A stretch of 64,000 bases of DNA, taken from contig JBHLMN010000006.1 in assembly GCA_048938105.1 (NCBI GenBank), positions 192,001 through 256,000 of the forward strand, read 5' to 3'. The first letter of the stretch is position 1. Each line of letters opens with the position of its first letter. Below, piece by piece: positions 8,317 to 38,311 of the stretch. The translations under genes and the position numbers were made by a program. The stretch comes from Promethearchaeota archaeon. GTDB lineage: Archaea; Asgardarchaeota; Heimdallarchaeia; Hodarchaeales; Hodarchaeaceae. The notes under the pieces were generated by a model. The model was given only the letters and a program-made list of their open reading frames with translations, made no database searches and was not told where the DNA came from.

Positions 8317-9183
8317 CTACAAGTATGTTTTAACTGCTTCAGGAATATCCCACGGTGTTTCAGTGACTTTAGCACCAACAGCTTCCAAGGAAGCGATTTT
8401 TCCTTGAGCTGTTCCAACATTTCCAGAGATTATAGCACCAGCGTGACCCATGCGCTTTCCTTCAGGAGCACTCTTACCTGCAATGTAAGCAACAACAGAT
8501 TTGCTTATATTTTGATCTTTAATATATTGTGCAACCTTTTCTTCGTCATCACCCCCAATTTCACCTATTAATACAATTATTTTAGTTCCCTGATCTTTTA
8601 CGTAATAATCAAAAGCCTCAATCAGAGTTTTTCCTCTAACTGGATCCCCACCAATGCCAATATATGCGGAAACCCCGATATCGGCATTTCCGATGGCTTT
8701 TGTAATCTCATATGATAGTGTACCGCTTTTTGCAATGACTGCTACATTCCCAAAATGAGCCATATCTCCTGGCATGATTCCTAGTTTGATTTTGTCAGGG
8801 ATGAGCATTCCTGGAGTATTAGGACCAATCAAATGCAATTTTTTCGCCTTCGCTGTTTCTACAAGACGAACCATGTCAAAAACTGGAACACCTTCAGTTA
8901 TAATACAGGTCATATTAACTCCAGCATCCAAACTTTCCATAACAGCACTATAAGTGAACCGAGCTGGGACAAAAATGATACTGGTGTCGACTCCACGCTC
9001 ATTGACAGCTTCTTGGACAGTATTGAATACTGGTACCCCAAGAACTTCTTGGCCACCTTTTTTAGGAGTGACTCCTGCAACGATATTAGTACCGTACTTT
9101 AGCATCAATTGGGTATGGAACTTTCCCTGATTACCAGTAATACCTTGCACAACGACTTTCGAATCTTCATTAATATACATCAA
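8317..9183 (-). CDS. sucD: Succinyl-CoA synthetase alpha subunit
   Basis: VVVQGITG, GPNTPG, KSGTLSYE, GIGGDP, and the phospho-His motif KRMGHAGA. Confidence 0.95.
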   Translation of the reverse strand: MMYINEDSKVVVQGITGNQGKFHTQLMLKYGTNIVAGVTPKKGGQEVLGVPVFNTVQEAVNERGVDTSIIFVPARFTYSAVMESLDAGVNMTCIITEGVPVFDMVRLVETAKAKKLHLIGPNTPGMLIPDKIKLGIMPGDMAHFGNVAVIAKSGTLSYEITKAIGNADIGVSAYIGIGGDPVRGKTLIEAFDYYVKDQGTKIIVLIGEIGGDDEEKVAQYIKDQNISKSVVAYIAGKSAPEGKRMGHAGAIISGNVGTAQGKIASLEAVGAKVTETPWDIPEAVKTYL

Positions 9184-9192
9184 AACACCTAC

Positions 9193-10329
9193 TTAAGCCA
9201 TAACCTCTTTGAGCTTACCAACTGCATCCATCATATCTTGGTAAGCATCAATACCCGCATTTTTGAGTATTGCAACACCTTCAGCCTCTCGTGTTCCAGT
9301 CAATCTTATTACCATAGGGGGAGCATCTGGAAATTCTTTCATTGTCAGTAATATAGCTTCTGCCACAACATCACACCTTGTTATACCACCATAAATGTTG
9401 ATTAAGACTGACTTAGGTCTCATTGTATAAATGAGCTTAAGTGCTTCATATACTCGTTCCTTACTGGCACCTCCACCAACATCCAAGAAATTCATACCTG
9501 CCAAGCCGTGTTGAGCCAAAACATCAAGTAAAGCCATTGTTAACCCTGCTCCATTTGCTAGAATTCCTATTTCACCATCTAGTTCAACAAAAGAAAAACC
9601 AACCCTTTGAGCAGTTTTTTCTAATTCAGTAAGTTTTCGTTTCCGTAATTCCACGATAAGCTCCTGACGAAACGCAGCATTATCATCCAGAGTCATTTTT
9701 CCATCTACAGCGACCAGGCCTGAAGGAGTAAGCACCAGTGGGTTGATTTCAACAAGTTGTGCTTCTTTTTTAGTTGTAATCTGCCATAGCTTCATGAAGA
9801 GATCTACAGCTGAATTAAGATTTTCACCTGAAAAACCTAATTTTTCAGCGACTCCTTTTGCAGCGACCTCACTCAATCCTTCTGTTAAAGAGATATTCTG
9901 CTTGATTATTGCCTCTGGGCGAGTGGCAGCTACTTCTTCAATGTCAATACCCCCTTCAGCACTTGCAATGAGAACGAAACGTCTTCCAGAAGAATCTAAG
10001 GCAATAGAGCAGTAATATTCATGTTTAATATCAGCAAGACCCTCTATGAGGATTGCTTCGACTCCATATTCTCCCACCATTCTGTCAAAGAATTCGTTAC
10101 ATATCGAAAGAGCTTCTTCTTTTGTTTGAGCTATTTTGATGAGACCTCGCTTCTTTCGACTACCAACTGCTATTTGGCTTTTTACTATAGCAGGGAAGTT
10201 GAATTGACTTATCTTTTCTTCAACATCTTCCCCTTTTATGATAACAAGACGATCAGCAAGGGGAATCTCATATTCACTGAAAATTTCTTTGCTTTCATAT
10301 TCGAGTAAACGAATTGTATATACCTCCAA
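9193..10329 (-). CDS. sucC: Succinyl-CoA synthetase beta subunit (probable true start is ATT at 10314)
   Basis: RLLEYESK N-terminus, EGGIDIEEVA, EINPL, NGAGLTMA, NFLDVGGGA, GGITRCD. Confidence 0.95.
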   Translation of the reverse strand: MEVYTIRLLEYESKEIFSEYEIPLADRLVIIKGEDVEEKISQFNFPAIVKSQIAVGSRKKRGLIKIAQTKEEALSICNEFFDRMVGEYGVEAILIEGLADIKHEYYCSIALDSSGRRFVLIASAEGGIDIEEVAATRPEAIIKQNISLTEGLSEVAAKGVAEKLGFSGENLNSAVDLFMKLWQITTKKEAQLVEINPLVLTPSGLVAVDGKMTLDDNAAFRQELIVELRKRKLTELEKTAQRVGFSFVELDGEIGILANGAGLTMALLDVLAQHGLAGMNFLDVGGGASKERVYEALKLIYTMRPKSVLINIYGGITRCDVVAEAILLTMKEFPDAPPMVIRLTGTREAEGVAILKNAGIDAYQDMMDAVGKLKEVMA

Positions 10330-10382
10330 AAATTACCATATAAAAGAAGGTAGTGAATTTTTGATGTATGGATTGGAAATGT

Positions 10383-10988
10383 TCAGAAAGTAATGCCTAA
10401 AAACTCACCTATTTTACCTAGATTTTCTTGAGCCTGCATAGCTACATTTTTAAAAAGACTATCACCGTTTGTATCGATACCTACGATTAATGGCCCGAAT
10501 TTATCGACTTCTAGAACCCATAAACATTCAGGAGTTCCAAGATCTAACCAATGAACCTCTTTAACCCTTTTAATCCCTTTAGCAGCGACTACTGCGGCAC
10601 CGCCTACGAAGGCGGTATATATGGCCTTATATTCCTTCATAGCTTTAGCTGTTCTATCACCCATACCACCTTTACCGATAACAACATTCACATTAAAGGT
10701 CTTAATGAATCTGTCTTCAAAAAGATCCATACGGGTTGATGTCGTGGGCCCAGCAGCAACAATTTCCCATTCATCTCCTATTTGTCTCACAACTGGGCCA
10801 CAATGATAAACAGCTAAACCTTCAAAATCAATGGGCATTTTTTCACCTTTTTTTGCCAGGTGTAATGCTCTCTCATGAGCTTCATCTCTAGCAGTGAATA
10901 TTGTTCCCGATATGTAGATAACATCGCCTATCTTAACTTTTTGTACATCTTCTTTTGAAATTGGGGTTGTAAAATGAAATTCAGCCAT
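10383..10988 (-). CDS. fumB: Class I (Fe-S) fumarate hydratase beta subunit
   Basis: TARDEAHER, YHCGP, GPTTSTRM, GKGGM. Lies between the sdh and suc genes. Confidence 0.9.
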   Translation of the reverse strand: MAEFHFTTPISKEDVQKVKIGDVIYISGTIFTARDEAHERALHLAKKGEKMPIDFEGLAVYHCGPVVRQIGDEWEIVAAGPTTSTRMDLFEDRFIKTFNVNVVIGKGGMGDRTAKAMKEYKAIYTAFVGGAAVVAAKGIKRVKEVHWLDLGTPECLWVLEVDKFGPLIVGIDTNGDSLFKNVAMQAQENLGKIGEFLGITF

Positions 10989-10990
10989 GA

Positions 10991-11896
10991 TTATTCCTCC
11001 TTGTGAGTTAGATATTCTACTCGTTTATCTGGGTAGATACGAGCGGTTGATCTTCTAGCAGCCCAGCATTGATAAGCTACAGCAGCAGGTAGGGAAGCTG
11101 GGTGTCGATGAGCATATTCAATCTTTACATCTAACGCTGTAGAGACATCTCCACCTAATCCCATTGCACCAATACCAGTCATATTAATTGCTTTCAAGAG
11201 GTCTTCTTCAAGCTTGGCTATTTCGGGATCAGGATGTCGTTCTCCGATTGGCCGCATTACTTGTTTTTTTGCTAATTTCAACGCGATATCTGCGCCACCA
11301 CCTATACCAACACCAACGACTCCAGGTGGGCAAGGTTGGCCACCTGCGTTTATAATAGTATCAATAACAAACTTTTTTATTCCATTAATTCCTTGGCCTG
11401 GTTTCAACATCCCCAAAGCGCACATATTCTCTGATCCCCCGCCTTTGGGAAATACTGTAATTTCCAGATAATCAGCTCCGGGAATAAAATCATAATTAAT
11501 GAATGGAATATGATTTCCTGTATTGTCCCCAGAATTTCCGCCTACAATAGGATTGACCGCATTTGGTCTTAAAGGAACTTCCTTGGTTGCTCGAACTGAA
11601 GCTTTCCTTAGTGTCTCTTCAATGCCTATAACTTTAGGAAAATTCTCACCAATATTAACATAATATATGTGAATTCCAGTATCTTGACACATTGGAGTAG
11701 ACGTCTCATCTGCTATGGTAAAGTTATCCACAATTGTTTTCAACGCAGCTTTACTTGTTGATTTCGTTTCTTGTTCATACATAGTTTTCAATGCGTCGGA
11801 AACATCTTTTGGTAGTTGAGTTGAGGCAAATTTGTGCAATTTAACAACTACATCTTCAATTATCGTGTTATCGAACGTTTCTGTCATAGTTATCAC
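10991..11896 (-). CDS. fumA: Class I (Fe-S) fumarate hydratase alpha subunit
   Basis: PMCQDTG, KGGGSEN, PCPP, GIGG, QCWAARR. TCA-cluster context favours fumarase over tartrate dehydratase. Confidence 0.9.
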
Positions 11897-12074
11897 TAAT
11901 CACAAACTATTGTTATATGAAAAACTGATAAAATATTTCTTTTGGTGTAAATAAAAATTCTCTCACTTATAACTTGTAAATACAATGTAGCCTTTCGAGT
12001 TGTTCATTCTTGCCTTGTCAAAATTCACATTGCTATGAAATATGAGAAAGTAGTGAAAAAAAGGAAGTCACGTT

Positions 12075-12815
12075 TTAACGTGACCAAAATTTAAGTGCTT
12101 GCTTCGCTGATTGGCGTTTTAATGCTTGGATAGCTTCTGTAGGATTAAGTTCTTTTGGGCATGCCTCAACACAATTAAATGCAGTATGACAGCGAAAGAC
12201 TCCGTCTTCAGCAGTTACACGTTTTACACGGTTCTTAGTATTTTCATCTCTAGTATCCTTAGTGAAACGGAATGCTTTTAGAAGTGCTCCAGGGCCCAAG
12301 TAATTCTTGTCTGTCCATACTGATACACATGAACTGTGACACGCTCCACATAGAATACATCTAGTTGCTTCTTCGATAATTTTAAAGTCTTCAGGGCTTT
12401 GAATGATTTCATCTTCAGGATCTTTAGAGTGATCCCTTATTAGGAAAGGATTAATAGCAAGTAATTTCTCATAGAAGGGATCCATATCAACTACCAAGTC
12501 TTTTATCACTGGAAAGAATGGTAATGGTTCCAACTTGATTTCTTTTTTGTTTAATTGTAAAACGAGAGTTTCACAAGCTAATTGGTACTTATTATTAACA
12601 AGCATTGCGCAAGATCCACATACGCCTGCACGACAATTGTATCTCATCGAAACGGAGCCATCGTACTTAGCAATGATCTCTTGTACTGCAATTAATACTG
12701 TTGTCCCTTTGTCACAATCTACTTCAAAGCTATCCCAGTATGGTTCATAATCTGTTGCTGGATTGAATCGCTTTATCTTGAAGGTTATTTTTTGAGTTTC
12801 TTTTGTTTCACTCAT
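12075..12815 (-). CDS. sdhB: Succinate dehydrogenase/fumarate reductase iron-sulfur subunit
   Basis: CRAGVCGSC (2Fe-2S), CILCGACHSSC (4Fe-4S), CHTAFNCVEACP (3Fe-4S). Confidence 0.95.
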   Translation of the reverse strand: MSETKETQKITFKIKRFNPATDYEPYWDSFEVDCDKGTTVLIAVQEIIAKYDGSVSMRYNCRAGVCGSCAMLVNNKYQLACETLVLQLNKKEIKLEPLPFFPVIKDLVVDMDPFYEKLLAINPFLIRDHSKDPEDEIIQSPEDFKIIEEATRCILCGACHSSCVSVWTDKNYLGPGALLKAFRFTKDTRDENTKNRVKRVTAEDGVFRCHTAFNCVEACPKELNPTEAIQALKRQSAKQALKFWSR

Positions 12816-12825
12816 TCATTTCACC

Positions 12826-14553
12826 TCAATACGTTCGTTCCTTTGGCTCCCATTTTGTTATAACGACATCTAAGTAGCTCAATTTTGCCTCTCCATCTGC
12901 ATAATTGGCCAATGTATGCTTTAAGAAGTTCTCATCATCTCTCTTGGGATAATCGAGACGCCAATGACATCCTCGACATTCTGTTCGTTTCAATGCACCT
13001 AAACACATAACTTCAGCGACATCAAGCATACCTTCAATAGCAAGTACCCACTCTAATTCTCTATTATATTGTCTGACCTTAGACTTTAAATATGCACCTT
13101 CTTTGAAACGCTTTTTAAGTTCCCTAATCTTATTAAGAGCTTCTGTAAGGGGGCCTTCTTCACGATATACAAAAACCTTGGTCATCATTGTAGCTCTCAT
13201 TTCTTCCATAATTGAGAAGGGATCATCCTTACCTTCACCATTGAACCATCGATCAAGTTTTGCTTCTTGTTTTTGTAATTCTGAAAAAAGGACATTTACA
13301 TCAGATGAGGATGTTACCCCCTTTGCATATTTAGCTGCCTCTAATCCGGCAATTTTTCCCATAACAGCACATTCCAGAAGAGAATTCCCACCTAAACGAT
13401 TAGCACCGTGGACTGATACACAGGAACATTCACCACAAGCAAAAAAGCCCTCTAATTCTTTGCTAGAGCAGTTTTCATCTACATGAATACCCCCCATCAT
13501 ATAGTGAAAACCAGGTTGAACTGGAATAGGATCTTTGATCATATCTTGGTTAGTAAATATTAATGCTAGCTCACGTATCTGAGGAAGACGCTCAAGAATT
13601 TGTTCTGCTGGCAAATGAGTCAAATCAAGGTGGACATAACCATTTTCTTTTGTACCAAATCCTCGTCCTTCAAGAACTTCTTGATAAATTGACCGAGAGA
13701 CAATATCTCTTGGAGCAAGTTCCATTTTCTCTGGCGCGTATTTTTCCATGAAGCGTTCACCCTTATTATTTCGTAAGTAACCACCTTCACCTCGTGCTGC
13801 CTCAGAAATTAGGACATTATTCCCATATAATGTTGTTGGGTGAAATTGAATGAATTCCATATCCTTGAGACCGACACCTGCCCAATAGGCTATTGCCATA
13901 CCAAAAGCGTTACAGCTAAGAGCATTGGATGTTGCTCCATAAACCTGTCCAGCACCACCAGTGGCGAAAATAACTGCATCACATTCCCACATCTCAAGAT
14001 CGCCTGTTCTAAAGTTATAAACAATGAGTCCTTGAACTTTTTTGTCTTTAACTGCTAATCGGGTAACAAGGCGATCTTCATAAACAGAGACACCGAGTTT
14101 GACAGATCTTTCCCAAGCTACATGAAGTACAGAGTGGCCAGTTCGGTCTGCAGCAAAACATGTTCTTGGGTATCCAGCTCCTCCGAAAGGTCTCTGTCCT
14201 ATTCTTCCATCTTCAAACCTTGAAAAAGGACAACCCCAATGTTCTAGTTCATAAACTGTTTCTTTAGCCAAACCTATCATTTTAATGACAGCTGGTTGAT
14301 CAGCCAGATAATCTGAACCTTTAACTGTATCGAAAGCATGTCGTTCAACAGAATCATCCTCTGATTCTGGATTATTGCATAATGGTGCATTAATTCCTCC
14401 TTGAGCTGCAACAGAGTGGCTTCTCACTGGTTGACATATTGAAATAACGGCTACATCTGCTCCAGTTTCTCTGGCAGCTACTGCTGCACGCATTCCAGCC
14501 AGACCTGACCCCACTACGAGTATTGAATGTCTTTGTATCTTCATTTTTATCAC
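12826..14553 (-). CDS. sdhA: Succinate dehydrogenase/fumarate reductase flavoprotein subunit
   Basis: [15 protein letters not shown] (covalent-FAD His), [31 protein letters not shown]. Confidence 0.95.
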
Positions 14554-15080
14554 TCACCTGCTAAAATCACAATTTCTGGAACAATTAGAATGAATACTAA
14601 AGCTACAAGCCAAGTAATGATCCCTAGGATCAGTAAAATCCAGAAAATTGTTTTTTGACTACGAATTCCTATTCCCAAGTCAAAAAGGACAACCCGAATG
14701 CCATTAAATCCATGATATACAAGAATCGCAATTAAACCTATATCTATCATATATCCGATACTAATAATGTTTTGGATGTTGATAACAATGTTCCCAAATT
14801 CTAGGGGAGCAAGGTCGGGGAAAATTGGTGAATTAACCCAGTGTATTAGGCTATTGTAGAATTGGCCAGCATTTAAGCCCCAAATTGAGTCTACAGCGAG
14901 TGTAAAGATCATTCCGAAATGGAATATTACATAAAATATTAGAAGAAGACCTGTAATTCGTTGAAGTAACCACGCCCACATTCCAATTCCGCGGGCAAAA
15001 GGATTGAACCATTGAAGAAAGTTTGTTGCTTTACTACTCGTATTTATTTGTGAATCATGTAGTTCCTCGTTTTTTGCCAT
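14550..15080 (-). CDS. sdhC: Succinate dehydrogenase cytochrome b membrane subunit
   Basis: WLLQRITG, two conserved His ([12 protein letters not shown]), three TM helices, overlaps the sdhA start. Confidence 0.85.
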
Positions 15081-15086
15081 TAAAAA

Positions 15087-15530
15087 TCACCTTATTCCAA
15101 TACTTGCGACAGTAAGATTCAACCAAAGAGTGTAACTGATAGCCAAAATTCCTATGATTATTAACAAGAATGCGATTAATTTTCGAAGTGTTTGATTTGT
15201 TGTGAGGTCTAATATTACTGTTCGAAATCCATTCAACATGTGAAAGACTAATAGTGTAACCATGCAGAAAGATATTACAAGATACAAAGGTATTCCTAAG
15301 TATGTATATTGCATCTTCCATTGAACTGCTTCAAAAGAAGCAACACCAAATGCCCGTATGTCCTTTGGTAGGAGAGCTGTTAGATAATGATTTGCCAGCA
15401 TGTGAAATAAAATAAAGAAGAATAATAAAAACCCAGAGACCCGCTGGAAAACCCACCAAATTGCACTCCTTGCCTGATGTTTGGGCACAAAACGCTTAAG
15501 TTTACTTTCAGAAGAAATTTCTATTCCCAT
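15087..15530 (-). CDS. sdhD: Succinate dehydrogenase hydrophobic membrane anchor
   Basis: WVFQRVSG, LFHM, FHMLNGFRTVILD, three TM helices. Confidence 0.8.
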   Translation of the reverse strand: MGIEISSESKLKRFVPKHQARSAIWWVFQRVSGFLLFFFILFHMLANHYLTALLPKDIRAFGVASFEAVQWKMQYTYLGIPLYLVISFCMVTLLVFHMLNGFRTVILDLTTNQTLRKLIAFLLIIIGILAISYTLWLNLTVASIGIR

Positions 15531-15869
15531 ATTTTGATCACATCATGTAACTATATTGCGATAGACTTTCAATTTTTACGAATATCGAAAGTTAAAGGCT
15601 CTGTGGAATATATTGGCAACCAGCTAATAGTATCTTATCTTTTTTTTCATTGGAAGGAAAAAAAAAGGCTATTTTTTAAACATAAAATAAATTCAGTTAA
15701 CAATTGTGGACTGATTTTAAAATTAAATTTTCAATTCAAAGCAATTCTGAGTACACAATTGTAAAAAGAAATTACTTGATGATATAGAAGCAAAAAGTGT
15801 CTGGAATATTAGTAGGTGAAAAATTAGGGATTGCCGTTTATCTTCAAGAGAAAATAGATTAAAGATAAA

Positions 15870-15897
15870 AAATGAGATGTGATTAAGAATCTCATTT
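15870..15897 (-). terminator. Hairpin downstream of larA
   Basis: AAATGAGAT-10 nt-ATCTCATTT inverted repeat just after the larA stop, followed by T-rich sequence on the minus strand. Confidence 0.45.
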
Positions 15898-15899
15898 CT

Positions 15900-17258
15900 T
15901 TATCGATTCTTCACATCAATGTAATTCCCAGCATCTGGTAAAACATAAATAAGGGGATCTCGATTCCTTTCTTCTCTGTACTTCTGAATCCATGAACGAA
16001 GACTCTCTTGAATCGTACCTGTTCGTGGGACATATTTCATTTGAAAAACATTTTCAATCTCGTCTTTATCCATTTCAGTGATTATATGACAAGTACAGCG
16101 CTTTAAAATTCGTAGTAAATCGACTACCTTTTGATTACCAATTTTAAAAGTTTCAATACTGCACTTTGTTTCAATAACATGATTCATTGCTTCACCAAGA
16201 TCCATTCCCTTAATTTCTTGCATTGTGTCATAGTAATTCTGAGATCCATGACCAAAAGGGCAGTGAGCAAGTAGTAAAACATTTCCACCTTGTTTAACTG
16301 CATTCCAGCCAGCGTGAAAACCTTTTCCACCTTGGTATAAATTAATACTCAATGCTCCTGTAGATACAATTACTAGATCAGCAGGATCCTCAACTTCAAC
16401 GATTCGAAGGGGTTTTAACGTTTCTAGTACTAATTCATGTAAAGAGTTGATATCTCCTCCGTTAAGAATAACAATATCATCACCCTCCATAACAGCATCG
16501 ATACAGAATACAGGGACTAGTTTCTTGGTAGATTTAGCCATCTCAATCATGTCTTGAATGACTGGATTACCTGTTGTATTCCCTAGACGACATTCTGGTT
16601 TAAATCCATGAACCTTATCAAACATTTGTGGATGATTTCTGGCAATGGTTTCTTTACCAGCACATCCTGGGAAGAAGGATTTAACTGTTCCTGCAACTCC
16701 AGCGAAATAGTGATATTCGCTATCTGAGACAGCAATAACTAATCCAGATTCCAATACATCAATATCAACTTCAATCGGTGTACCTAATGACGAGGTTCCA
16801 AGATTTTTGCAATTTTCATCTTGTTTATGAATTATAACATGATCTTTCCATGCATTGTAAATCTCAGAACCAAGGATTTTATTTTCAAGTAAATCATCAC
16901 TTGGAGGACTATGGGATCCACTTGCGATCATAAGACGAATATCATCTTTATTTACTCCAAAATCAAACAGTTTTTCTAAAAGTATTGGAAGTAAAATCTT
17001 CGTATGCTTATTTGGTCTGGTTGCATCATCCACAAGAATCATTATTCTCGGTCTTGCCCGATTTTTCACCATTTCCTCTAAGGGAGGTGAATCAACAGGA
17101 TTTTTGATGATTTCGTCAAAACGAGCTTGGAGATCTGTGAAAGTACGTTTTGCTTTCTCGGGCTCCAGAACTCGTACATTCAAATCTGCTGGGATGAAAT
17201 CGGAAATCATTTCATCCCCGTATGCTAACGATATATCCTTGTAAGACATAAGTATCAT
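15900..17258 (-). CDS. larA: Nickel-pincer-nucleotide-dependent lactate racemase family protein (LarA homolog)
   Basis: DDATRP, ASGSH, HYFAGVAGTVKSFFPG (His and Lys), NHPQM, NLYQGGKG. Substrate uncertain. Confidence 0.85.
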   Translation of the reverse strand: MILMSYKDISLAYGDEMISDFIPADLNVRVLEPEKAKRTFTDLQARFDEIIKNPVDSPPLEEMVKNRARPRIMILVDDATRPNKHTKILLPILLEKLFDFGVNKDDIRLMIASGSHSPPSDDLLENKILGSEIYNAWKDHVIIHKQDENCKNLGTSSLGTPIEVDIDVLESGLVIAVSDSEYHYFAGVAGTVKSFFPGCAGKETIARNHPQMFDKVHGFKPECRLGNTTGNPVIQDMIEMAKSTKKLVPVFCIDAVMEGDDIVILNGGDINSLHELVLETLKPLRIVEVEDPADLVIVSTGALSINLYQGGKGFHAGWNAVKQGGNVLLLAHCPFGHGSQNYYDTMQEIKGMDLGEAMNHVIETKCSIETFKIGNQKVVDLLRILKRCTCHIITEMDKDEIENVFQMKYVPRTGTIQESLRSWIQKYREERNRDPLIYVLPDAGNYIDVKNR

Positions 17259-17552
17259 CCCTATTAAATCCGTAATTTACAATATTTTATAATAATTTTT
17301 CCTCCAGTGATTTACAAGATGCAAGGAAAAGCAAGTTTCACTTAATATTCTTTTTCTAACCACAATAAAACACAAATGTAATTAGAATGTAGAATACACT
17401 TTTTGTAATAAAATTCTTATTGACTTGACAATTTTTTTGTAACTAAACTAAAGAACCCCCTCACAAGCAAATAAGAGGGAAATTAAATACGTACGGCACT
17501 TCCTGCCTTTTTCTATATTATATTTAGTAACTAGATTTAGAGAGGAAAGAAT

Positions 17553-18836: not shown

Positions 18837-18849
18837 AGGAGGATAATAA

Positions 18850-20682: not shown

Positions 20683-20736
20683 GTCCCAATGTCTCTTTTT
20701 ATTTTAAACTAAAAATGAAATATAAGGTGATAAAAA

Positions 20737-21936: not shown

Positions 21937-22064
21937 GTTGCTTTCCCTTCCCTTTTTCCTTTTTTTATAAATTGACTAGTCTCTATTTTATTTGATTATA
22001 ATTTTTTAATATAATTTATCTTAATCTTGAAAAACTATAAAAAAAAGAGGGGGAGGATGCCAAA

Positions 22065-23984: not shown

Positions 23985-24125
23985 TCAACAAACATCCTTA
24001 TCTTATAAGGTTTTAAGCTGTTTTTTCAGGATTTAGCTCGCTTTACCAAGCGCTTTCACAAATTTATAAATTCTTTTTACGAAAGATTCTGATCGTGCGG
24101 TAAAAATAACTCAAATTTTATGAAT

Positions 24126-24557: not shown

Positions 24558-24634
24558 GATTTTGTCCTTTTATTATATAGGAATCACAAATATTCTCAGA
24601 TTTTGTCTTTTTATTATATAGGAATCACAAATAT
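24553..24634. repeat. 41-bp tandem direct repeat (2 copies, 1 mismatch)
   Basis: TCTCAGATTTTGTC(C/T)TTTTATTATATAGGAATCACAAATAT at 24553-24593 and 24594-24634. Confidence 0.9.
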
Positions 24635-24760
24635 TCTTAATAATAAATTCTTAGATTGAAGCTTTACAAGATTAAGATTGAATCATAAAGCAAAGTATGG
24701 TAATAAGTTTATACTATAAGTGAAAATTAGAAATCTTCAAAGACGATCAAGTGAAAGTGA

Positions 24761-30521
<5,761 letters not shown>

Positions 30522-30747
30522 TCATCTTCATTTTATGCATACTAACCTAATAATGTATTCATGATGTTATTCAGCCCATTTGAATGCTATGTATCCATCT
30601 CTGAAATCTACCTACATATAAGGGACAGATCTGCTTAATCTACCAACAAAATCTTTGTCGCAAATCTCATTTCCCAATCATTTTCGGCTAAAACTTTAAA
30701 AAATTTTTTATAAAACATCTACCATCAAGTAAGGTTGGTTAAATACT

Positions 30748-31215
30748 ATGAGTAAACAAGAAAGAATCGATTTTTACAAGGATCAAGTCGAATTAGAGAA
30801 TACAATCGTTGAAAAAGCTGAAAAAGCTGTTCAGGGTTTGGACAATGTCCTCATTCGAGAATTGATTCTAGGGATCGCTCTAGACTCAAAAAAACATGCA
30901 GGAATGTTGAATGCACTGGTTAGCATATATACCAAGCCGACTCCCTCTGTAGCAGAAGAATTTGGAGATGAGCTTAAAAAAACTATCGCAGAACATATTG
31001 AGCTAGAACAACAAGCTATAGATACCTATCAAGAAAAATTGGAAACAACTGATAACGAAAGTGAGAGAATTATCATTAAAGCAATACTAAACGACGAAAA
31101 GAAACATCATAAGCTCTTAACAACTATTCAAAAAATGATTGTGGAGAAACTGACTTTATCAGAAAAGGACTTATGGGAAATGGTTGAAGAGAGCTATTTC
31201 GATTTTGGGGAATAG
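30748..31215 (+). CDS. Ferritin-like (rubrerythrin-fold) diiron protein
   Basis: DSKKH and DEKKHH motifs in a four-helix bundle pattern; paralog of 59183..59659. Confidence 0.75.
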   Translation: MSKQERIDFYKDQVELENTIVEKAEKAVQGLDNVLIRELILGIALDSKKHAGMLNALVSIYTKPTPSVAEEFGDELKKTIAEHIELEQQAIDTYQEKLETTDNESERIIIKAILNDEKKHHKLLTTIQKMIVEKLTLSEKDLWEMVEESYFDFGE

Positions 31216-31497
31216 GACGATTACACTTGTAGAGCTCTTATACTTAATATTACCTCTCTCTTTTTTCACTAAAGCTTTACAACGGTGTTAAATCATATAT
31301 ATTCTAGCTTGATATGTCCCTGTAAGGGGTACTGGTAATTTTCTATTTTGACTTACTATTATGTAATTCATTCCTATTGTTTTTAAGAATGTTTAAAAAC
31401 TTGAAACTTCATATAATGATTATCTATTTAATTTTATATAACATTAAATAGTAATTTGAAAATAATTTCAATATTTAAATAAGATGAGGTTAGGTAA

Positions 31498-33408
31498 ATG
31501 GATTTATTCAAAATTCTCAAATTAAACAAAATCGCATATAAAATAGCTGCATTAGCTCTAGTTATAGCGTTAGTACCTATAGTAGTTATTACTGTTTTTA
31601 ATGCATCAGCTCTTCAAAATGAACTTTATTCAAATGTAAAACATGATTTGACCAACAGAGCAACAGATGTAATGCATATCAGCAATGAAATGCTATTAAA
31701 TCCTGTAGAGAGCGTTGAAAGCTTAGCTGAAAGCACAATGGTTCGAAGAAGCGCTTTAAATGCAACAAAACAAAATTTGACTGTATTATGGGATAGTTAT
31801 GAAGGAGCAAACTTTGATAATGATGAGAATATGAAAAATAATAAAACAGCGAAGACATGGAATCCAGATAATGACATTGATCCTGGACTCTCTTCATACT
31901 TGGATACTTTTGCAATCAGATTTGGTTTTTCAGAGGTATTTATTGCCGATTCCCGAGGTTATGTATATGCTTGCTCCCAATCGGTTCCAGGTGATTTTTT
32001 ACAGAAAGATGAGGATTGGTGGACCGCTGCTCGTGATACATCGGATGGGCAATTCATAGAGTTTGGTTACGATGATAGTACTGGTCAATATTTGATGGAC
32101 ATCATTCAGGAAGTTCAGCTATCTGAGGGAACCTTCACTGGAATGATCAAGGCAGGATTTAATGTCGGAACATTGAATGAAGTAATTGCAGATGTTTCTC
32201 TCCTCCATGGATTAGAGGAAGAAGGAACAGAAGTAGAATATACTTCAGAATTCATTACTTCTGCGATAGAAGAAGAGGGGTTAATAGTATTTATGGTTAC
32301 TAGTGATGGTAAAATCTTCTCTCATCTTGACAGTTCACTCGTAGGGAAAAACTTAACTGAAATTATGTCACCAACTCATTCTGCAAACAAACCTATATTT
32401 TCCATCTTGAATAGTGGCGTTTTGGAATATTCTCATGGAAAAAAAATAAATATCAATGGTGTTGATTATTTTGCTTCTTATGAACCACTTGTGAATTGGG
32501 ATATTTTACTATTTTTTGGAGAAAAGGCAGCTCCTATCGAAAATAAGATCTTTAACCAAATTTTAGTTTCAATTGTCTTCTCTGTGGTCTTGGTAGCATT
32601 AGCCGTAGTTAGTGCTGTTTTCATGGCTACAACACTAGCAAAACCTATTAACAATTTATCGAAAGTCACTAATAAAATAGCCTCGGGTGATTTAACTAGT
32701 AGTATAGAGGATCTTGACCTTGATAGACATGATGAAATTGGGAGGCTAAGCCGATCATTTGGTAGCATGGTAGAGAATCTTAGTGCTTTTGTTTATGGTT
32801 CACAATCGTCTGCAGAGGAAGTGGCTTCATCAGCTGAGGAATTAGCATCTACTTCAGAAGAAGTGAACGCTCTTAGCGAAGAAATTGCCGCGACAATTCA
32901 ACAAATTAGCCGTGGTTCATCAAATCAATCCGAATTATCAGTGAAAGCCATTGAAGACGTAAAGCAAATGTCAGAGATAGTTGATCAGTCTCTTGAAAGA
33001 ATTGAAAGTACATTACGAGTCATTGAAGATATTGCAGGCCAAACAAACATATTAGCGTTGAATGCAGCTATTGAAGCTGCACGTGCAGGTGAATATGGTA
33101 GAGGTTTTGCAGTTGTCGCTGATAATGTTCGAAGGCTTGCAGAGGAAACAAAAAACAATTCAGCTGAAATTAGCAAAGTGACTGTAGATATTGTCACAAA
33201 CATTGGTGGTAGTGTAGCGAGCTTACAAGAAACATTACAAGCATTTGCGGCTCAATCAGAAGAATTTAGCGCCTCTAGTGAGGAAGTGGCTGCTGCAACC
33301 GAGGAGCAAACAGCAGCTATGAATCAGATGACTACAGCAGCTCAAGATTTAACGAAGCTTGGTGAAAAAATGGCACAACTTGTTACAAAATACAAAGTTG
33401 ACAAATAA
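31498..33408 (+). CDS. Methyl-accepting chemotaxis protein (TM-dCache-like-TM-HAMP-MA)
   Basis: Two TM helices, HAMP ([10 protein letters not shown]), signalling tip [27 protein letters not shown]. Confidence 0.95.
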
Positions 33409-33426
33409 ATTCTGTGTTGTTATGAA

Positions 33427-33470
33427 TGGAGATCTTATTTTTAAGTATGAGTAGTGATCTCCAATTTTTT
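33427..33470 (+). terminator. Hairpin plus T-tract after the MCP gene
   Basis: TGGAGATC...GATCTCCA followed by a T-run. Confidence 0.45.
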
Positions 33471-33585
33471 TAATTCTTAAAAAGAAGCTTAGATGCACCA
33501 ATTAAACGTATATATTCTATATAGATCAGAATATAGAAAAGAAAGATCCCACCCCTTTTTCACTTGGATATATCCCTTTAAAAAA

Positions 33586-35985
33586 TCAAGCTGCAGCTTT
33601 CGCTTCTTTGTGGACTACTTCATGGTTTTTTCTAGCAATTTTACTCATTTCTGTTACAACGTCTGCAAATTTCTTCCCTTCTGCAGCTGACATCCATTCA
33701 ATGATAAACCGTTCATCAGCGATACCTTCTTTTTTCATCCAGCGACGAATCTTTTTCTCACGTTTCAATGCCCAATCGTTCCCAGAAATGTAATGACAGT
33801 CTTGAGGATGACAACCAGTCAACATCACGGCACCTGCCCCGCGTTCAAAGGCTCTTTTTATAAAATCAACATCGACACGACCCGAGCACATTGTACGGAC
33901 AATTCTAGAATTGGTTGGGTATTGAATGCGACTAGTTCCAGCTAGATCAGCTCCTCCATATGAACACCAGTTACAAGCAAAGATCATTACTTTCTCTGAG
34001 GCGTTGTCTCTAAGGGCAATGTCTATTTGCCGCATAATCATCGCATCTGTAAAGTTGGTCATTGTTATAGCATCTTTCGGGCAATCTGCAGCACATGTTC
34101 CACAACCCTTGCATAAGATGGGATTAACATGAGCAGGAGTCTTCTTTTTCTTATCCACACTAATAGCATTGTAAGGACATCGTTTAGCACAGGTACCACA
34201 AGAATTACAAAGCTCAGCATCAACATAGGCGTATAAGGGTTCAACAGTGAACTCTCCCTTAGCAAGTAACCTTGTCACTCGTCCTGCTGCAGCACTGGCT
34301 TGAGTAACACACTCGCGAATGTCTTTTGGAGATTCTGCCCCACCGGCGATGAAAACACCATCAGTTGGGGTATCAACTGGTTTTAATTTAGGGTGAGCTT
34401 CGATATAAAACCCTTTAGGATCACGAGAAACTGGAAATGGAATAGGATATGGTGAACCCTCTGCTCCAACAGAGAGAACTACAAGATCAAATTCTTTAGT
34501 TAGAAGTTTCCCCGATTGGATATCTTCAACAGAGACGAGAAGATTGTTATTTCCCGGAATTTCTTCTATCAAACCTGGTCGTCCGCGGATGAAATGGACT
34601 CCTTCCTCTCTTGAACGAGTATAAAGTTCTTCAAATCCTTTCCCAAAGGCTCGAATATCCATATAAAACACAGATATGTCTACGTCAGGCCAATGCTCTT
34701 TGATCAAAAGAGTGTCTTTTATAACTTCCATACAACAGAAGTTACTACAGTATGGGTTAAATCGAACGTCTCTCGATCCAACACAATTGATGAATGCAAC
34801 GCTTTTCGGAGGTTTGAGATCACTTGGGCGTACAAGTTCACCAGAAGTAGGCCCAGCTGCATTAATCAATCGCTCAAATTCGAATGTTGTTACTACATTG
34901 GGATAAGCTCCCCAACCATATTCTGGTATCTTGGAGGCATCAAAAATCTGAAAACCTGTAGCAACGATGATGGAACCCACTTTGAAGTTATATACCTTTT
35001 CAGTGTCTTCATAAATGATAGCTTCTTTATCACACGTGGTAGTACATTTGCCACATGCTAATGGAGAAAGACCAAGACAGTTCTCGGTATCTATTAGGTA
35101 AGCTGCTGGAACAGCCTGCGGATATGGAATATAAATTGCTTTCCTCCATCCTAGGTTACCAGAATATTCATCAATGACATTCACAGGACAAATATCAATA
35201 CAATCATTGCAAGCGGTACAAAGGTCTTCATCTACATATCGTGGTTGTTTCGTAATAGTTACCTCGAAGTTTCCTACATATCCATCAATTTTCGTAACCT
35301 CTGCACTTGCAATCAAGTTGATATTTGGATGATTACCTACATCAGCCATCTTAGGGCCAAGAATACAGATTGAACAGTCCATAGTAGGGAATGTTTTGTC
35401 AATTAACGCCATTCTCCCACCAATTGTCGGGCTTTTCTCGACCATGATGACTTCATAGTCATCAGCTAAATCTAACGCAGCTTGAATACCCGCTACCCCA
35501 CCACCAATGATTAATACTCTTTTTTCAACAGGGACAACGATTTCCTCAACAGCTTCTAATAATTCAGCTTTGGCTATTGCCATTTCAGTTAATTCTTTAG
35601 CTTTTAAAGTTGCCTCTTCTTTTTCGTGGAGATGAACCCAACTACAGTGCTCTCTGATGTTAGCAACCTCAACCACTTCTGAATTCATTCCCAATCGTCG
35701 TAAGAGATTCTTCCATGTTGGAAGATGTAATCTTGGGGAACAAGCAGAAATAACTATTTTTTCTATTCCCTGTTCTTTAATAGCTTCCTCAATCTCAACC
35801 TGTCCTGGATCTGAACAGGTATAGGTGTTTACCTGTACCAGTTTTACTCCTGGTAACTGCTCAACTTCTTTGGCGATTTCATCTATATCGACAGTTCCAC
35901 CAATATTCTTCCCACATTTACAGAGAAAAACACCAATTTTAGATTCATTTGTTGGTTGATCAACACTTTCGGTCATTGTAATCAC
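33586..35985 (-). CDS. hdrA: Heterodisulfide reductase subunit A fused to an MvhD-like [2Fe-2S] domain
   Basis: CKCGKNI, ACSPRLH, REHCSWVH, GGGVAG, DKTFPTMDCSIC, CVGSRD, YCSNFCC, C-terminal ferredoxin, then MvhD motifs FACNWCSY, MCSGRVD, GCHPQDCHY. Confidence 0.92.
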   Translation of the reverse strand: MITMTESVDQPTNESKIGVFLCKCGKNIGGTVDIDEIAKEVEQLPGVKLVQVNTYTCSDPGQVEIEEAIKEQGIEKIVISACSPRLHLPTWKNLLRRLGMNSEVVEVANIREHCSWVHLHEKEEATLKAKELTEMAIAKAELLEAVEEIVVPVEKRVLIIGGGVAGIQAALDLADDYEVIMVEKSPTIGGRMALIDKTFPTMDCSICILGPKMADVGNHPNINLIASAEVTKIDGYVGNFEVTITKQPRYVDEDLCTACNDCIDICPVNVIDEYSGNLGWRKAIYIPYPQAVPAAYLIDTENCLGLSPLACGKCTTTCDKEAIIYEDTEKVYNFKVGSIIVATGFQIFDASKIPEYGWGAYPNVVTTFEFERLINAAGPTSGELVRPSDLKPPKSVAFINCVGSRDVRFNPYCSNFCCMEVIKDTLLIKEHWPDVDISVFYMDIRAFGKGFEELYTRSREEGVHFIRGRPGLIEEIPGNNNLLVSVEDIQSGKLLTKEFDLVVLSVGAEGSPYPIPFPVSRDPKGFYIEAHPKLKPVDTPTDGVFIAGGAESPKDIRECVTQASAAAGRVTRLLAKGEFTVEPLYAYVDAELCNSCGTCAKRCPYNAISVDKKKKTPAHVNPILCKGCGTCAADCPKDAITMTNFTDAMIMRQIDIALRDNASEKVMIFACNWCSYGGADLAGTSRIQYPTNSRIVRTMCSGRVDVDFIKRAFERGAGAVMLTGCHPQDCHYISGNDWALKREKKIRRWMKKEGIADERFIIEWMSAAEGKKFADVVTEMSKIARKNHEVVHKEAKAAA

Positions 35986-35994
35986 TTATTATCA

Positions 35995-36870
35995 TCATTT
36001 TTTTGTCTTACTTTGTGCTAACTCTATCACACGATCTACTTTCTGAGTAAAACCCTCCCGTTGCGCATCAACAAACTCCCCGCAAATAATTATGCCTTTC
36101 TTAAAGTCAAATGTAGCTTCGTGGGGTGGACAATTAGTTTTTACTCTAACTTGCTTTTTTAACCATTCTAACATCGCTACAGCATCACCAAGTTTATTCT
36201 TTCGGCCGTATTGGGTAAAGCAAGGAGCAAGAACCTCTATGAAACTGAAACCTGGATTATCAAACGATTTTAGGATACTTTTTCGTAATCGAAGTGTGTC
36301 ATATCCAGGCCACCTAGCAACATAACTGGCTCCTGCAGCTGCAGCTAGAGAAACTAAGTTGAATGGAGGCTCAATGTTTCCGTAAGGTGTTGTTGCTGTG
36401 AAGTCACCAATTTGAGTCGTTGGAGCTACCTGTCCACCCGTCATTCCATACACATTATTGTTTATACACAGAACAGTTACCTCTATATTTCTTCTACATG
36501 CATGAATGAAATGGTTACCTCCTATTGCAAAGAGATCTCCATCTCCTGAAAGTACAACGACTTCAAGATCAGGATTCGCTAATTTCAACCCTGTAGCAAA
36601 AGGAATAGCCCTCCCATGTGTGGTATGAAAAGCAGGTGCTTTAAAACAACCGCTTGATCGGCCAGTACAACCTATACCTGACACAACTGCGTACTCTTTA
36701 GCAGTGAGGCCTCTTTCTCGAATACAACTAGTTATAGACGTAATTGCAGATCCAATTAAACACCCTGGACAAAAGATAAAACGATGCAAGTTCAACCATT
36801 GATGTAAAGGGTGTTCCTCTGGAAAGTCCTCAGAGCTTTCAGGTGATGGTATTTTTTCTATTGTAGTCAT
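35995..36870 (-). CDS. korB: 2-oxoacid:ferredoxin oxidoreductase beta subunit (KorB-like)
   Basis: FCPGC, SGIGC, HGRA, TPP motif GDGD...NNNVYGMTGGQ. Confidence 0.9.
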   Translation of the reverse strand: MTTIEKIPSPESSEDFPEEHPLHQWLNLHRFIFCPGCLIGSAITSITSCIRERGLTAKEYAVVSGIGCTGRSSGCFKAPAFHTTHGRAIPFATGLKLANPDLEVVVLSGDGDLFAIGGNHFIHACRRNIEVTVLCINNNVYGMTGGQVAPTTQIGDFTATTPYGNIEPPFNLVSLAAAAGASYVARWPGYDTLRLRKSILKSFDNPGFSFIEVLAPCFTQYGRKNKLGDAVAMLEWLKKQVRVKTNCPPHEATFDFKKGIIICGEFVDAQREGFTQKVDRVIELAQSKTKK

Positions 36871-36872
36871 AT

Positions 36873-38027
36873 TTAAACCTCCTTAAGTAACTGTTCATAT
36901 ATAAATGTTGGACTAAATGGAATAGTCGTTGGAATTAGGATACCAGGAACTTCAAATCCAAGATGGCGAAATCGTTGAACTTCTCGAATGACCATTCCAT
37001 AGTTCATTTCACTAACAATAACCTTTTTCACACCGAGCTTACTTAATTTCTCCATTAACTCCTGGGGGAATGGCCAAAGTGTCCTTAACCGAACTAATCC
37101 GACTTTATGGCCTTTTTTACGTACGCGCTCTACAGCTTCAGGAACACTTCTTGAATTTATTCCATAAGACAACATGACTATCTCTGCATCGTCTAAATGT
37201 TGTTCTTCCCATGGGATATATTTGTTAATATCGGAACTTGCGTTTCTGATCTTATCACAAAGACGCTTGACAAGTGTTATTGCTGTCTCTGGGGTCATAT
37301 CAGGACTACCAGTTACATCATGGGTAAGACCAGTGACGTAGAAATTATAATCACTTCCTGCAGTAGCCATCCCAGGAACGAGGTCGTCATCAAACACTTC
37401 AAAAGGTTGGTACTTTTCTGGTGGAACTTGAGGGGGTTTACGATTTATAATCTCAAAATCTGTGTGATATCGAACGGGTTCCATCATCTGCCCAACGATA
37501 CCATCTGATGCAACAATCACAGGCGTTCTATATTTTTCTGCTAAATTAAACGCGTAAATCCCAAAATCATACATCTCTTGAACTGATCCTGGAGCTAAAA
37601 CAATAACTTCATAATCACCATGAGAAGCAAATCTTACCTGCATTACATCAGATTGTGATGCTTTTGTAGGTTGTCCTGTACTAGGGCCGCCCCTCATAAT
37701 AGTCACAATAACCAATGGAGCTTCTAACATCACTCCAAGGCCAACAGTTTCAGCCATAAGTGAAAAACCTGGCCCTGAAGTTGCAGTCATTGCTTTTACA
37801 CCAGCATAAGAAGCACCAACAACAGCAACTATTGAAGCAAGTTCATCCTCCATTTGGATAAACTTCCCCCCAACCTGGGGTAAACGTCTGGACATGTAAT
37901 GCGCTATTTCTGAAGAAGGAGTGATGGGGTATCCACCAAAGAATCGACAACCAGCTGCGATCGCGCCTTCAGCTACCGCATAATTACCAGTAGTCAAAAT
38001 TAGTTTGCCATTTTTACTACTACTCAT
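36873..38027 (-). CDS. korA: 2-oxoacid:ferredoxin oxidoreductase alpha subunit (KorA-like)
   Basis: GYPITPSSE, QMEDE, ATSGPG, RGGPSTG. Confidence 0.9.
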   Translation of the reverse strand: MSSSKNGKLILTTGNYAVAEGAIAAGCRFFGGYPITPSSEIAHYMSRRLPQVGGKFIQMEDELASIVAVVGASYAGVKAMTATSGPGFSLMAETVGLGVMLEAPLVIVTIMRGGPSTGQPTKASQSDVMQVRFASHGDYEVIVLAPGSVQEMYDFGIYAFNLAEKYRTPVIVASDGIVGQMMEPVRYHTDFEIINRKPPQVPPEKYQPFEVFDDDLVPGMATAGSDYNFYVTGLTHDVTGSPDMTPETAITLVKRLCDKIRNASSDINKYIPWEEQHLDDAEIVMLSYGINSRSVPEAVERVRKKGHKVGLVRLRTLWPFPQELMEKLSKLGVKKVIVSEMNYGMVIREVQRFRHLGFEVPGILIPTTIPFSPTFIYEQLLKEV

Positions 38028-38311
38028 GGTTCTATACCCTCCTGTGGTATTTGAATTTCAGTAACGAAGATTGAAACCGAGGGACATAGTCTCTCACATT
38101 GTTGACATCCTACACATTCATCAGGCTTCACAGCGACAGCTGGGTGTAGCATTCGTGAGTTATATGCATCCAAATCAATCTCTATAACATTTGTCGGACA
38201 GAATTCCACACATAATTCACATCCATCACACTGTTCAGTTAGTATTGACACAACATACTCATGTTCAGCACGAGGAGGTGGTAATATGGGCTTCCGTTGG
38301 CTTCTTAACAT
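38024..38311 (-). CDS. korD: 2x[4Fe-4S] ferredoxin, OFOR delta subunit
   Basis: CDGCELCVEFCP and CVGCQQCERLCP; overlaps the korA start. Confidence 0.85.
   Translation of the reverse strand: MLRSQRKPILPPPRAEHEYVVSILTEQCDGCELCVEFCPTNVIEIDLDAYNSRMLHPAVAVKPDECVGCQQCERLCPSVSIFVTEIQIPQEGIEP

Follow-up and report, generated by a model that had tools for sequence, protein, structure and literature searches.

An ATP-citrate lyase-based citric-acid-cycle gene neighbourhood in a Hodarchaeales archaeon, more probably a reversible heterotrophic network than a pathway of CO2 fixation

Does a dense cluster of genes for enzymes of the reductive tricarboxylic acid (rTCA) cycle in an Asgard archaeon mean that the organism fixes CO2? 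The question is raised by a stretch of 64,000 nt, further called the window, of contig JBHLMN010000006.1 (assembly GCA_048938105.1; positions 192,001–256,000 of a contig of 270 kb). The genome (G000) of 5.85 Mb is assembled in 65 contigs, 22 of them shorter than 10 kb, with a completeness of 99% (marker genes) and a contamination of 7.25%. Genes were called from a list of open reading frames and by scans with Pfam and NCBIfam profiles, with scores compared with the model cut-offs. An initial annotation had read the clustered genes as a coordinated reductive or reversible cycle for CO2 fixation or acetyl-CoA generation. We observed that a conserved supercluster built around ATP-citrate lyase (ACL) does exist; CO2 fixation as its purpose is the part of the claim that did not hold, as neither a carboxylase nor an acetyl-CoA synthase (CdhC) was found in the genome. 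The reading that we favour, with a probability of about 0.6, is a reversible or branched heterotrophic organic-acid cycle that uses ACL as the citrate node and is provided with an oxygen-tolerant backup. Net autotrophic CO2 fixation is probably not the main role of the cluster, given an inventory that lacks a C3-to-C4 carboxylase.

The genes sucDC, fumBA, sdhBADC, aclBA, icd and acn are packed into 15.7 kb (8317–23984) and korDAB is situated 12.0 kb beyond; both the positions and the spacing given in the initial annotation were borne out by Pfam and NCBIfam matches (Table 1). A leftward string, larA-sdhCDAB-fumAB-sucCD, and a rightward string, aclB-aclA-icd, diverge from one intergenic region, whose length (293–295 bp) and sequence are kept in four genomes of the genus. 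This region may carry a putative shared regulatory site, with a predicted promoter function; it holds the hexamer TGTAAT three times. The cluster is larger than was first noted, since larA, the gene of an HdrA2/MvhD flavoprotein, a second 2-oxoacid:ferredoxin oxidoreductase (OFOR) and AcnA belong to the same neighbourhood, with FumC and cytochrome bd just past the window end. Congeners, among them the closed Hodarchaeales chromosome CP070695.1 (G009), show the same order of genes, which argues that the clustering is not a matter of chance. In a literature search that had most subscription journals outside its reach we found no paper describing the Hodarchaeales supercluster as such, nor one on an Asgard kor-hdrA operon.

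Judging by its conserved residues, the ACL looks catalytically intact. The ATP-grasp and citrate-binding domains are found in AclB, and the CoA-ligase fold with the lyase module in AclA, which is the composition of a two-subunit AclAB. Full-length alignments of AclA gave 790 bits with the Methanothrix ACL, 750 bits with human ACLY (residues 490–1093 being covered) and 417 bits with Chlorobium AclA. The phospho-histidine loop QFGHAGA is kept and aligns with the loop of the Methanothrix enzyme (6HXI); the C-terminal citryl-CoA lyase module keeps the catalytic Asp in LNVDGCIG, the same Asp that is changed to Ala in entry 6ZNW. Among 82 sampled genomes of the class, ACL was present in 17 of the 20 congeners; the two genomes from the other family of the order had no match and the 59 others gave one, a weak one, so that in this sample of the class ACL scarcely occurs outside the genus of this genome. 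In a wider sample of 120 Asgard genomes ACL turned up in 24, which represent 9 of 46 genera; most belong to the Hodarchaeales genus considered here and to a family of another class (f14). The arrangement had been called unusual in archaea; this is true in part, as ACL is already known from various Asgard lineages (PMC11976288; bioRxiv 10.1101/385732). The latter work credited Lokiarchaeia with ACL and the rTCA cycle, and Heimdallarchaeia with an oxidative TCA cycle. The eukaryotic ACL clades have been grouped with DPANN and Thermoplasmatota-E3 rather than with Asgard lineages (PMC11976288). Remoter Asgard loci carry the string sucCD-aclBA-icd, with aclBA-icd kept in loci L015–L019.

What else in the genome could make citrate? 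The absences of carboxylases, GTP-dependent phosphoenolpyruvate carboxykinase, CdhC, COX1, an E1-type dehydrogenase and a malate dehydrogenase of the lactate dehydrogenase type given in this text refer to profile searches of the 99%-complete genome, each run with positive controls. The scans agreed with the initial annotation that the window holds neither a citrate synthase nor a 2-oxoglutarate (E1-type) dehydrogenase. Genome-wide, the Citrate_synt domain was found four times: in aclA of the window, in a second aclA on the small contig C19, in a fusion protein of 713 residues on contig C6 and in a full-length synthase on contig C49. The synthase passes the cut-off of TIGR01800 (‘methylcitrate/citrate synthase II’); it was rejected as a dedicated citrate synthase because it is a member of a prpE-prpD-prpC-prpB operon (G000:C49:193347–201477). 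An Ldh_2-family dehydrogenase gene 2.4 kb away from this operon suggests that its product might regenerate oxaloacetate for the methylcitrate cycle; Ldh_2 was also seen near prpC in G009 and G008. The fusion on C6 is a SucD-citryl-CoA lyase paired with a SucC-like gene (444 residues; C6:280594–284066), the two being 29–34% identical to SucCD. Next to this divergent ACL-like pair is a solitary CitF-like gene (TIGR01584, 503 bits), and beta-oxidation genes and iorAB are close by too. A fused citrate synthase (CS) gene of ~620 residues, frequent in congeners, is not in this genome; it probably corresponds to the CS-phosphotransacylase that bioRxiv 10.1101/2025.11.08.687404 reports from a microcompartment operon. 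Going by this inventory, ACL would be the sole dedicated enzyme of the genome for the interconversion of citrate and acetyl-CoA plus oxaloacetate.

An autotrophic rTCA cycle needs a C3-to-C4 carboxylase to replace the intermediates lost to biosynthesis. No match in the genome was observed for PEP (phosphoenolpyruvate) carboxylase of either type (PF14010 PEPcase_2, PF00311 PEPcase), for pyruvate carboxylase/oxaloacetate decarboxylase (PYC_OADA, PF02436) or for GTP-dependent PEP carboxykinase (PEPCK); the sole match to PEPCK_ATP (26.5 bits, partial, in a frame of 660 residues) was not accepted as a PEPCK. As far as profile searches can tell, this lack of a dedicated carboxylase is a stronger argument against autotrophy than the sequence hints on direction, and refilling of cycle intermediates would therefore be left to malic enzyme, which is present. 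So are PEP synthase, three strong genes of the glutamate dehydrogenase family, beta-oxidation genes, IorAB and at least five further OFOR loci (none assigned to pyruvate). The E1-type dehydrogenase, present in most congeners, was not found in this genome; neither were COX1 of haem-copper oxidases, cytochrome bd being the only terminal oxidase found, and a malate dehydrogenase of the lactate dehydrogenase (LDH) type. The initial annotation had proposed a genome-wide inventory of citrate synthase, malate dehydrogenase, pyruvate:ferredoxin oxidoreductase and PEP or pyruvate carboxylases; for the first of these it recovered a PrpC-type citrate/methylcitrate synthase.

ACL, the Kor-type 2-oxoglutarate:ferredoxin oxidoreductase and fumarate reductase had been taken as the three markers of the rTCA cycle. 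They fail as markers of direction, because the oxidative cycle of Desulfobacter postgatei is said to have them too. The accompanying caution, that direction is not to be read from sequence, is one with which we agree, and the features of individual enzymes offer hints at most. In SdhA a motif of 10 residues carries the Gln typical of succinate:quinone reductases (SQRs), and the best solved relatives are SQRs (445–423 bits versus 407 bits for E. coli FrdA). Complex II is reversible by nature; the SQR-like features of SdhA hint weakly at oxidative operation. The same weak hint may be taken from Icd, whose nearest solved relatives are NAD-type isocitrate dehydrogenases (IDHs; 181–183 bits). SdhABCD in Hodarchaeales was already known (bioRxiv 10.1101/2024.07.04.601786). 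The membrane anchors (14550–15530) are 47–54% identical to those of G009 or locus L010 and 82–85% identical to those of locus L009 and the syntenic comparison genome G011, with SdhA and SdhB at 84–92%; two anchor variants seem to circulate in one genus.

The LarA-type protein encoded by the first gene of the leftward string has malate racemase Mar2 as its best solved relative (166 bits); in the alignment both catalytic His residues are matched, as are the Lys that tethers the cofactor and the Ni-ligand His. The larC gene for cofactor maturation was present in 9 of the 9 genomes of the genus searched, and a larA-type gene takes the same cluster position in loci L009–L012 and in G009 and G011. 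At the left end of the window lie two YdiJ-like genes with 76% identity between their products; their best NCBIfam model is D-2-hydroxyglutarate dehydrogenase YdiJ (382 bits, under the cut-off), and one of the two has a syntenic counterpart in both G009 and G011. Since larA and YdiJ-like genes are clustered in a genome without an LDH-type malate dehydrogenase, a racemase-dependent malate or 2-hydroxyglutarate step is possible.

The kor genes form a tight unit with a flavoprotein gene: korD and korA overlap by 4 nt, korA and korB are 2 nt apart, and the gene of the HdrA-MvhD fusion begins 9 nt after the korB stop. The fusion, with FlpD/MvhD domain, Fe-S motifs and GxGxxG, is 94% identical in G009 and 78–79% identical in another class, a conservation similar to that of KorB. 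It always follows korB directly, and the operon terminates with it in both Asgard classes. Functional coupling of Kor and HdrA2 is likely because the tight operon with HdrA2/MvhD is kept across two classes. The coupling may work as bifurcation feeding the synthase or as disposal of low-potential electrons from the oxidation of 2-oxoglutarate. No gene for a gamma subunit adjoins korDAB; an orthologue was found on contig C50 (G000:C50:52709–53275). Four genomes of another class have the order gamma-korD-korA-korB-hdrA/mvhD, their gamma being 53–60% identical to that of C50, and in congeners G001 and G062 the same gamma adjoins korD. Thus a Kor without gamma was rejected: the gene is relocated. 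It is located directly behind a gene for an Lrp/AsnC-type regulator (G000:C50:52162–53275); a link between this regulator and the gamma gene was rejected as well, as the pairing is not conserved in other loci examined. Contig C50 also carries a separate mvhG-mvhA-hdrA/mvhD-hdrC-hdrB cluster, and other NiFe hydrogenases are present in the genome.

The neighbourhood holds two sets of enzymes: Fe-S-rich FumAB, the aconitase of 639 residues and KorDAB-HdrA on the one hand, and FumC, AcnA, the two-subunit OFOR and cytochrome bd on the other. The second set resembles, by analogy, the stress-resistant isoenzymes of bacteria. The context is that of a heterotroph, with lacZ, 2-hydroxyacid dehydrogenases and a CoA transferase beside the cluster and with the prp operon, beta-oxidation and glutamate dehydrogenases elsewhere in the genome.

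In the reading that we favour, the organism would be a heterotrophic, oxygen-tolerant anaerobe, and the conserved neighbourhood would encode its central organic-acid network. Carbon would come mainly from amino and organic acids, with glutamate entering as 2-oxoglutarate by way of glutamate dehydrogenase and propionyl-CoA by way of the methylcitrate operon. Kor and SucCD would convert 2-oxoglutarate to succinate with a gain of ATP, and the low-potential electrons of Kor would pass to, or come from, the HdrA2/MvhD flavoprotein of the same predicted transcript. The ACL step, ATP-coupled and presumably near equilibrium, could run either way: toward citrate with a gain of ATP, as is said of D. postgatei, or toward cleavage, as in the rTCA cycle or with eukaryotic ACLY. 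Under anoxia complex II could act as a fumarate reductase and electron sink, leaving a branched cycle. With trace O2 it would oxidize succinate toward cytochrome bd, and FumC, AcnA and the two-subunit OFOR, amid peroxiredoxins and rubrerythrins, would take over the flux.

Could the same genes run an autotrophic or mixotrophic rTCA (Arnon-Buchanan) cycle? ACL would then cleave citrate, complex II would reduce fumarate and KorDAB(G) would serve as 2-oxoglutarate synthase, with electrons delivered by bifurcation at HdrA2/MvhD, for example from H2 by way of the Mvh hydrogenase. The clustering of ACL, Kor-type OFOR and complex II fits such a cycle, as do the kor-hdrA2/mvhD operon kept across two Asgard classes, the MvhGA-HdrA(D)CB cluster with the other NiFe hydrogenases, PEP synthase with several further OFOR paralogues, and the lack of a dedicated citrate synthase apart from PrpC; a comparable Kor-Hdr link is found in the expressed rTCA cluster of Candidatus Endoriftia (PMC11636981). 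Still, we regard it as unlikely in view of the carboxylases not found, the SQR-like SdhA, the NAD-type relatives of Icd and the heterotroph features among the neighbours of the cluster. Cultured Hodarchaeales, moreover, depend on peptides: strains HC1 and SC1 are strict anaerobes that degrade peptides in syntrophy and have O2-detoxifying oxidases and pathways for glutamate and aspartate degradation (bioRxiv 10.1101/2025.02.26.640444). A related possibility is that KorDAB(G) and HdrA2/MvhD make up one redox machine that would render the 2-oxoglutarate step reversible by flavin-based electron bifurcation and, with ACL and the Mvh hydrogenase, would allow an H2-driven reductive (mixotrophic, CO2-assimilating) TCA mode beside the heterotrophic one. 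This is a speculative extension to which we give little credence; if true, a facultative rTCA cycle would exist in close relatives of the eukaryotic ancestor. A different proposal takes ACL as eukaryote-like: it would only cleave citrate and so provide biosynthesis (e.g. of isoprenoid lipids) with acetyl-CoA and oxaloacetate, with citrate coming from a side activity of PrpC or from uptake and with the remaining cluster forming an ordinary oxidative or branched cycle. Indeed AclA is nearly as close to human ACLY as to the Methanothrix ACL and far from the Chlorobium protein, the PrpC-type synthase scores over the TIGR01800 cut-off, and in many congeners the ~620-residue CS gene shows that ACL and CS coexist in the genus. 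This genome, though, is without that CS type and has its PrpC in a propionate operon, and a synthase together with citrate cleavage in one compartment would make a futile, ATP-wasting loop. In addition, aclBA and icd share a predicted transcript, to which sucCD is added in other Asgard lineages; this grouping would therefore tie ACL to cycle flux, not to lipid synthesis. We consider the eukaryote-like role improbable.

A more trivial account, that the cluster is an artefact of assembly or binning or that the contig is not of Asgard origin, might draw on the contamination estimated for the bin and on a foreign aclA-icd pair carried by the 2.9-kb contig C19 of the same bin. The products of this pair are 93% and 90.5% identical to those of locus L016, a Promethearchaeota metagenome-assembled genome (MAG) from another Asgard lineage, and 74% and 70% identical to the window copies. 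We rejected C19 as an ACL paralogue, as it is closer to L016 and ACL is single-copy in all 19 of the 19 other ACL-positive genomes of the class; it probably stems from a different Asgard lineage of the sample and was binned wrongly. The window itself belongs to a 270-kb contig, and ~46 kb of it, a stretch bounded by sucD and acnA that takes in kor and the stress block, is collinear with G009 and with G011, in the latter reaching fumC and cydAB. Proteins of the cluster share 85–95% identity with their counterparts in MAGs whose titles name Candidatus Hodarchaeota, Heimdallarchaeota or Promethearchaeota, among them the closed chromosome; against the latter, TCA enzymes and Kor/HdrA show 84–95% protein identity, with lower values for the Sdh anchors and some accessory genes. 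Logan contigs tile positions 20494–39500 with zero mismatches, a single independent Logan contig of 11.7 kb spans acn to hdrA, the junctions of genome-specific insertions are covered by Logan pieces from another study, and the GC content matches that of the genome. Because of the synteny with a closed chromosome, the Logan tiling and the protein identities, the contig is neither chimeric nor non-Asgard, and an artefact is extremely improbable. The assignment to a probable Asgard archaeon in the initial annotation was correct, and two points it had raised, a chimeric contig as a refutation and synteny across relatives as a check, came out in its favour.

Several points speak against the heterotrophic, reversible cycle that we favour. 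The Gln/Glu rule for SdhA comes from bacterial work, in which E. coli Frd has Glu at the position of the Gln, and it is likewise from bacteria (E. coli) that FumC, AcnA and two-subunit OFORs are known as oxygen-tolerant. The direction of flux is a prediction from sequence, and no RNA runs containing positions 15900–23984 were found. Malic enzyme, if reversed, might substitute for the carboxylase, and the Mvh hydrogenase-HdrA(D)CB cluster might supply reduced ferredoxin from H2. For malate dehydrogenase the only candidate would be an Ldh_2-family gene, which scores below the equivalog cut-offs. Both SdhCDAB and CydAB need a quinone; the futalosine marker MqnA/D was not found in seven genomes (this one and six congeners), with the classical Men pathway not searched. 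The comparison with HC1 and SC1 is made at the level of the order. Finally, the coupling of Kor and HdrA bears a resemblance to the rTCA cluster of an autotroph, Ca. Endoriftia (PMC11636981).

How does the system relate to those already described? Earlier Asgard reconstructions with ACL (bioRxiv 10.1101/385732; PMC11976288) share with it a two-subunit ACL accompanied by Icd, Acn, Kor, SucCD and Sdh; here, in contrast, ACL is found in a Hodarchaeales genus alongside SdhCDAB and cytochrome bd. Both Asgard ACL and Hodarchaeales SdhABCD are thus known from the literature, and the Kor-HdrA link has a published bacterial precedent. The Chlorobium/Aquificales Arnon-Buchanan cycle has the same ACL, Kor, fumarate reductase/succinate dehydrogenase, Icd, Acn, Fum and SucCD; the present case differs in an AclA nearer to the archaeal/eukaryotic type, in the anaplerotic carboxylase not found and in the heterotrophic context. 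Moeller, Schauder, Fuchs and Thauer are said to have described in 1987 an oxidative citric-acid cycle of D. postgatei in which ACL makes citrate and yields ATP. That organism, reportedly an anaerobe too, combines ACL with a ferredoxin-dependent 2-oxoglutarate oxidoreductase and with a quinone-linked succinate dehydrogenase of the membrane; unlike it, said to respire sulfate and to oxidize acetate fully, the archaeon has cytochrome bd as the sole terminal oxidase found and a PrpC-type synthase.

The HdrA2B2C2 complex of Methanosarcina acetivorans is attributed to work by Yan, Wang and Ferry in 2017, and its HdrA2 is reportedly an HdrA-MvhD fusion. The Kor-linked protein matches the HdrA2 model NF040770 over its full length; it differs in a score just below the cut-off, in having no HdrB2C2 adjoining and in sharing a predicted transcript with an OFOR. 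In Ca. Endoriftia persephone, the Riftia symbiont, the genes for a four-subunit Kor and for HdrA likewise share a neighbourhood with aclAB and further TCA genes (PMC11636981). In its expressed rTCA cluster hdrA and hdrBC enclose KorABCD, and aclAB is adjacent; another KorAB isoform, a dimeric one, is encoded elsewhere, and flavin-based bifurcation was proposed to feed the cycle (PMC11636981). There, however, the flanking hdr genes belong to an Hdr-Flx complex with pntAB and tfrAB, and the organism is a proven autotroph. Here HdrA2/MvhD is the only such protein after korB, with no HdrBC, Flx or Pnt adjoining and with HdrCB in the Mvh cluster on C50; complex II is the membrane SdhCDAB and no carboxylase was found, so that the likeness is one of working principle only.

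Hodarchaeales are among the closest archaeal relatives of eukaryotes, and their handling of citrate, acetyl-CoA and oxygen informs models of the host in eukaryogenesis. Nearly the whole gene set of the citric-acid cycle is found here in one neighbourhood, with ACL, an enzyme also of the eukaryotic cytosol, standing in for citrate synthase. Oxygen-labile isoenzymes have presumably oxygen-tolerant counterparts close by, and a predicted electron-bifurcating flavoprotein is linked to the 2-oxoglutarate step. The value of the analysis is mainly corroborative: the full-genome inventory argues against equating the ‘three rTCA markers’ with CO2 fixation.

Table 1. Features of the window and of its right flank (nucleotide positions in the window; bits are profile scores)
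Feature	Position	Strand	Evidence or remark
Two YdiJ-like FAD-oxidase/Fe-S/CCG D-2-hydroxyacid dehydrogenases	2–2455 (5′ end open), 2769–5735	+	Pfam FAD_binding_4, FAD-oxidase_C, Fer4_8, CCG
Family I CoA-transferase-like gene, 589 residues	5848–7617	-	Pfam CoA_trans 56 bits; no NCBIfam match
sucD, succinyl-CoA synthetase	8317–9183	-	NF004230, 382 bits, over cut-off
sucC, succinyl-CoA synthetase	9193–10329	-	NF001913, 369.5 bits (cut-off 370)
Class I (Fe-S) fumarate hydratase, beta	10383–10988	-	Pfam Fumerase_C; two-subunit fumarase 10383–11896: PRK06246, 344 bits (cut-off 276)
Class I (Fe-S) fumarate hydratase, alpha	10991–11896	-	Pfam Fumerase
sdhB	12075–12815	-	
sdhA	12826–14553	-	
Two Sdh_cyt membrane anchors (sdhD, sdhC)	14550–15080, 15087–15530	-	With sdhAB, membrane-bound complex II
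larA-type nickel-pincer 2-hydroxyacid racemase/epimerase homologue	15900–17258	-	Lar_N, LarA_C; first gene of leftward string
Divergent intergenic region, AT-rich, 294 bp	17259–17552		Between larA and aclB
aclB	17553–18836	+	Citrate_bind 264 bits; ACL ATP-grasp domain Citrate_synth_N 229 bits (cut-off 83)
aclA	18850–20682	+	CoA-ligase and citrate-synthase-like domains
icd, NAD-IDH/IDH3-like isocitrate dehydrogenase	20737–21936	+	Iso_dh 221 bits; under all NCBIfam equivalog cut-offs
acn, aconitate hydratase, 639 residues	22065–23984	-	PRK07229, 973 bits (cut-off 612)
Beta-galactosidase C-terminal fragment	24126–24512		Insertion versus G009
FtsX-type permease	24761–27412		Insertion versus G009
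Further rubrerythrin-like gene	30748–31215		
Methyl-accepting chemotaxis protein	31498–33408		Insertion versus G009
HdrA2-type HdrA-MvhD fusion flavoprotein, 799 residues	33586–35985	-	NF040770 HdrA2, 1076 bits (cut-off 1100)
korB	35995–36870	-	
korA	36873–38027	-	
korD	38024–38311	-	
Oxidative-stress block: two ferritin/Dps-like, rubrerythrin, nitroreductase, PrxQ fusion, thioredoxin reductase	39933–47573		
Two-subunit OFOR	beta 48511–49527, fused gamma-alpha 49532–51415	-	TIGR03710, 650 bits, over cut-off; TIGR02177, 258 bits
acnA, AcnA-type aconitate hydratase, 904 residues	51980–54694	-	TIGR01341, 1273 bits (cut-off 945)
1-Cys peroxiredoxin	57727–58404		
Complete cydAB, LldD-like FMN dehydrogenase, class II fumarase FumC	1.7–6.9 kb beyond window end		FumC 708 bits, over cut-off

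Outside the central strings, too, the comparison genomes keep much of the neighbourhood. The CoA-transferase-like gene adjoins sucD in G009 and G011 as well; the oxidative-stress block is syntenic in both, as is the two-subunit OFOR, which is flanked by genes with CBS domains, and acnA adjoins fumC in G011. The interval between acn and hdrA in G009 contains lacZ and a rubrerythrin-like gene only, and the three extra features of the window in this interval are backed by independent contigs.

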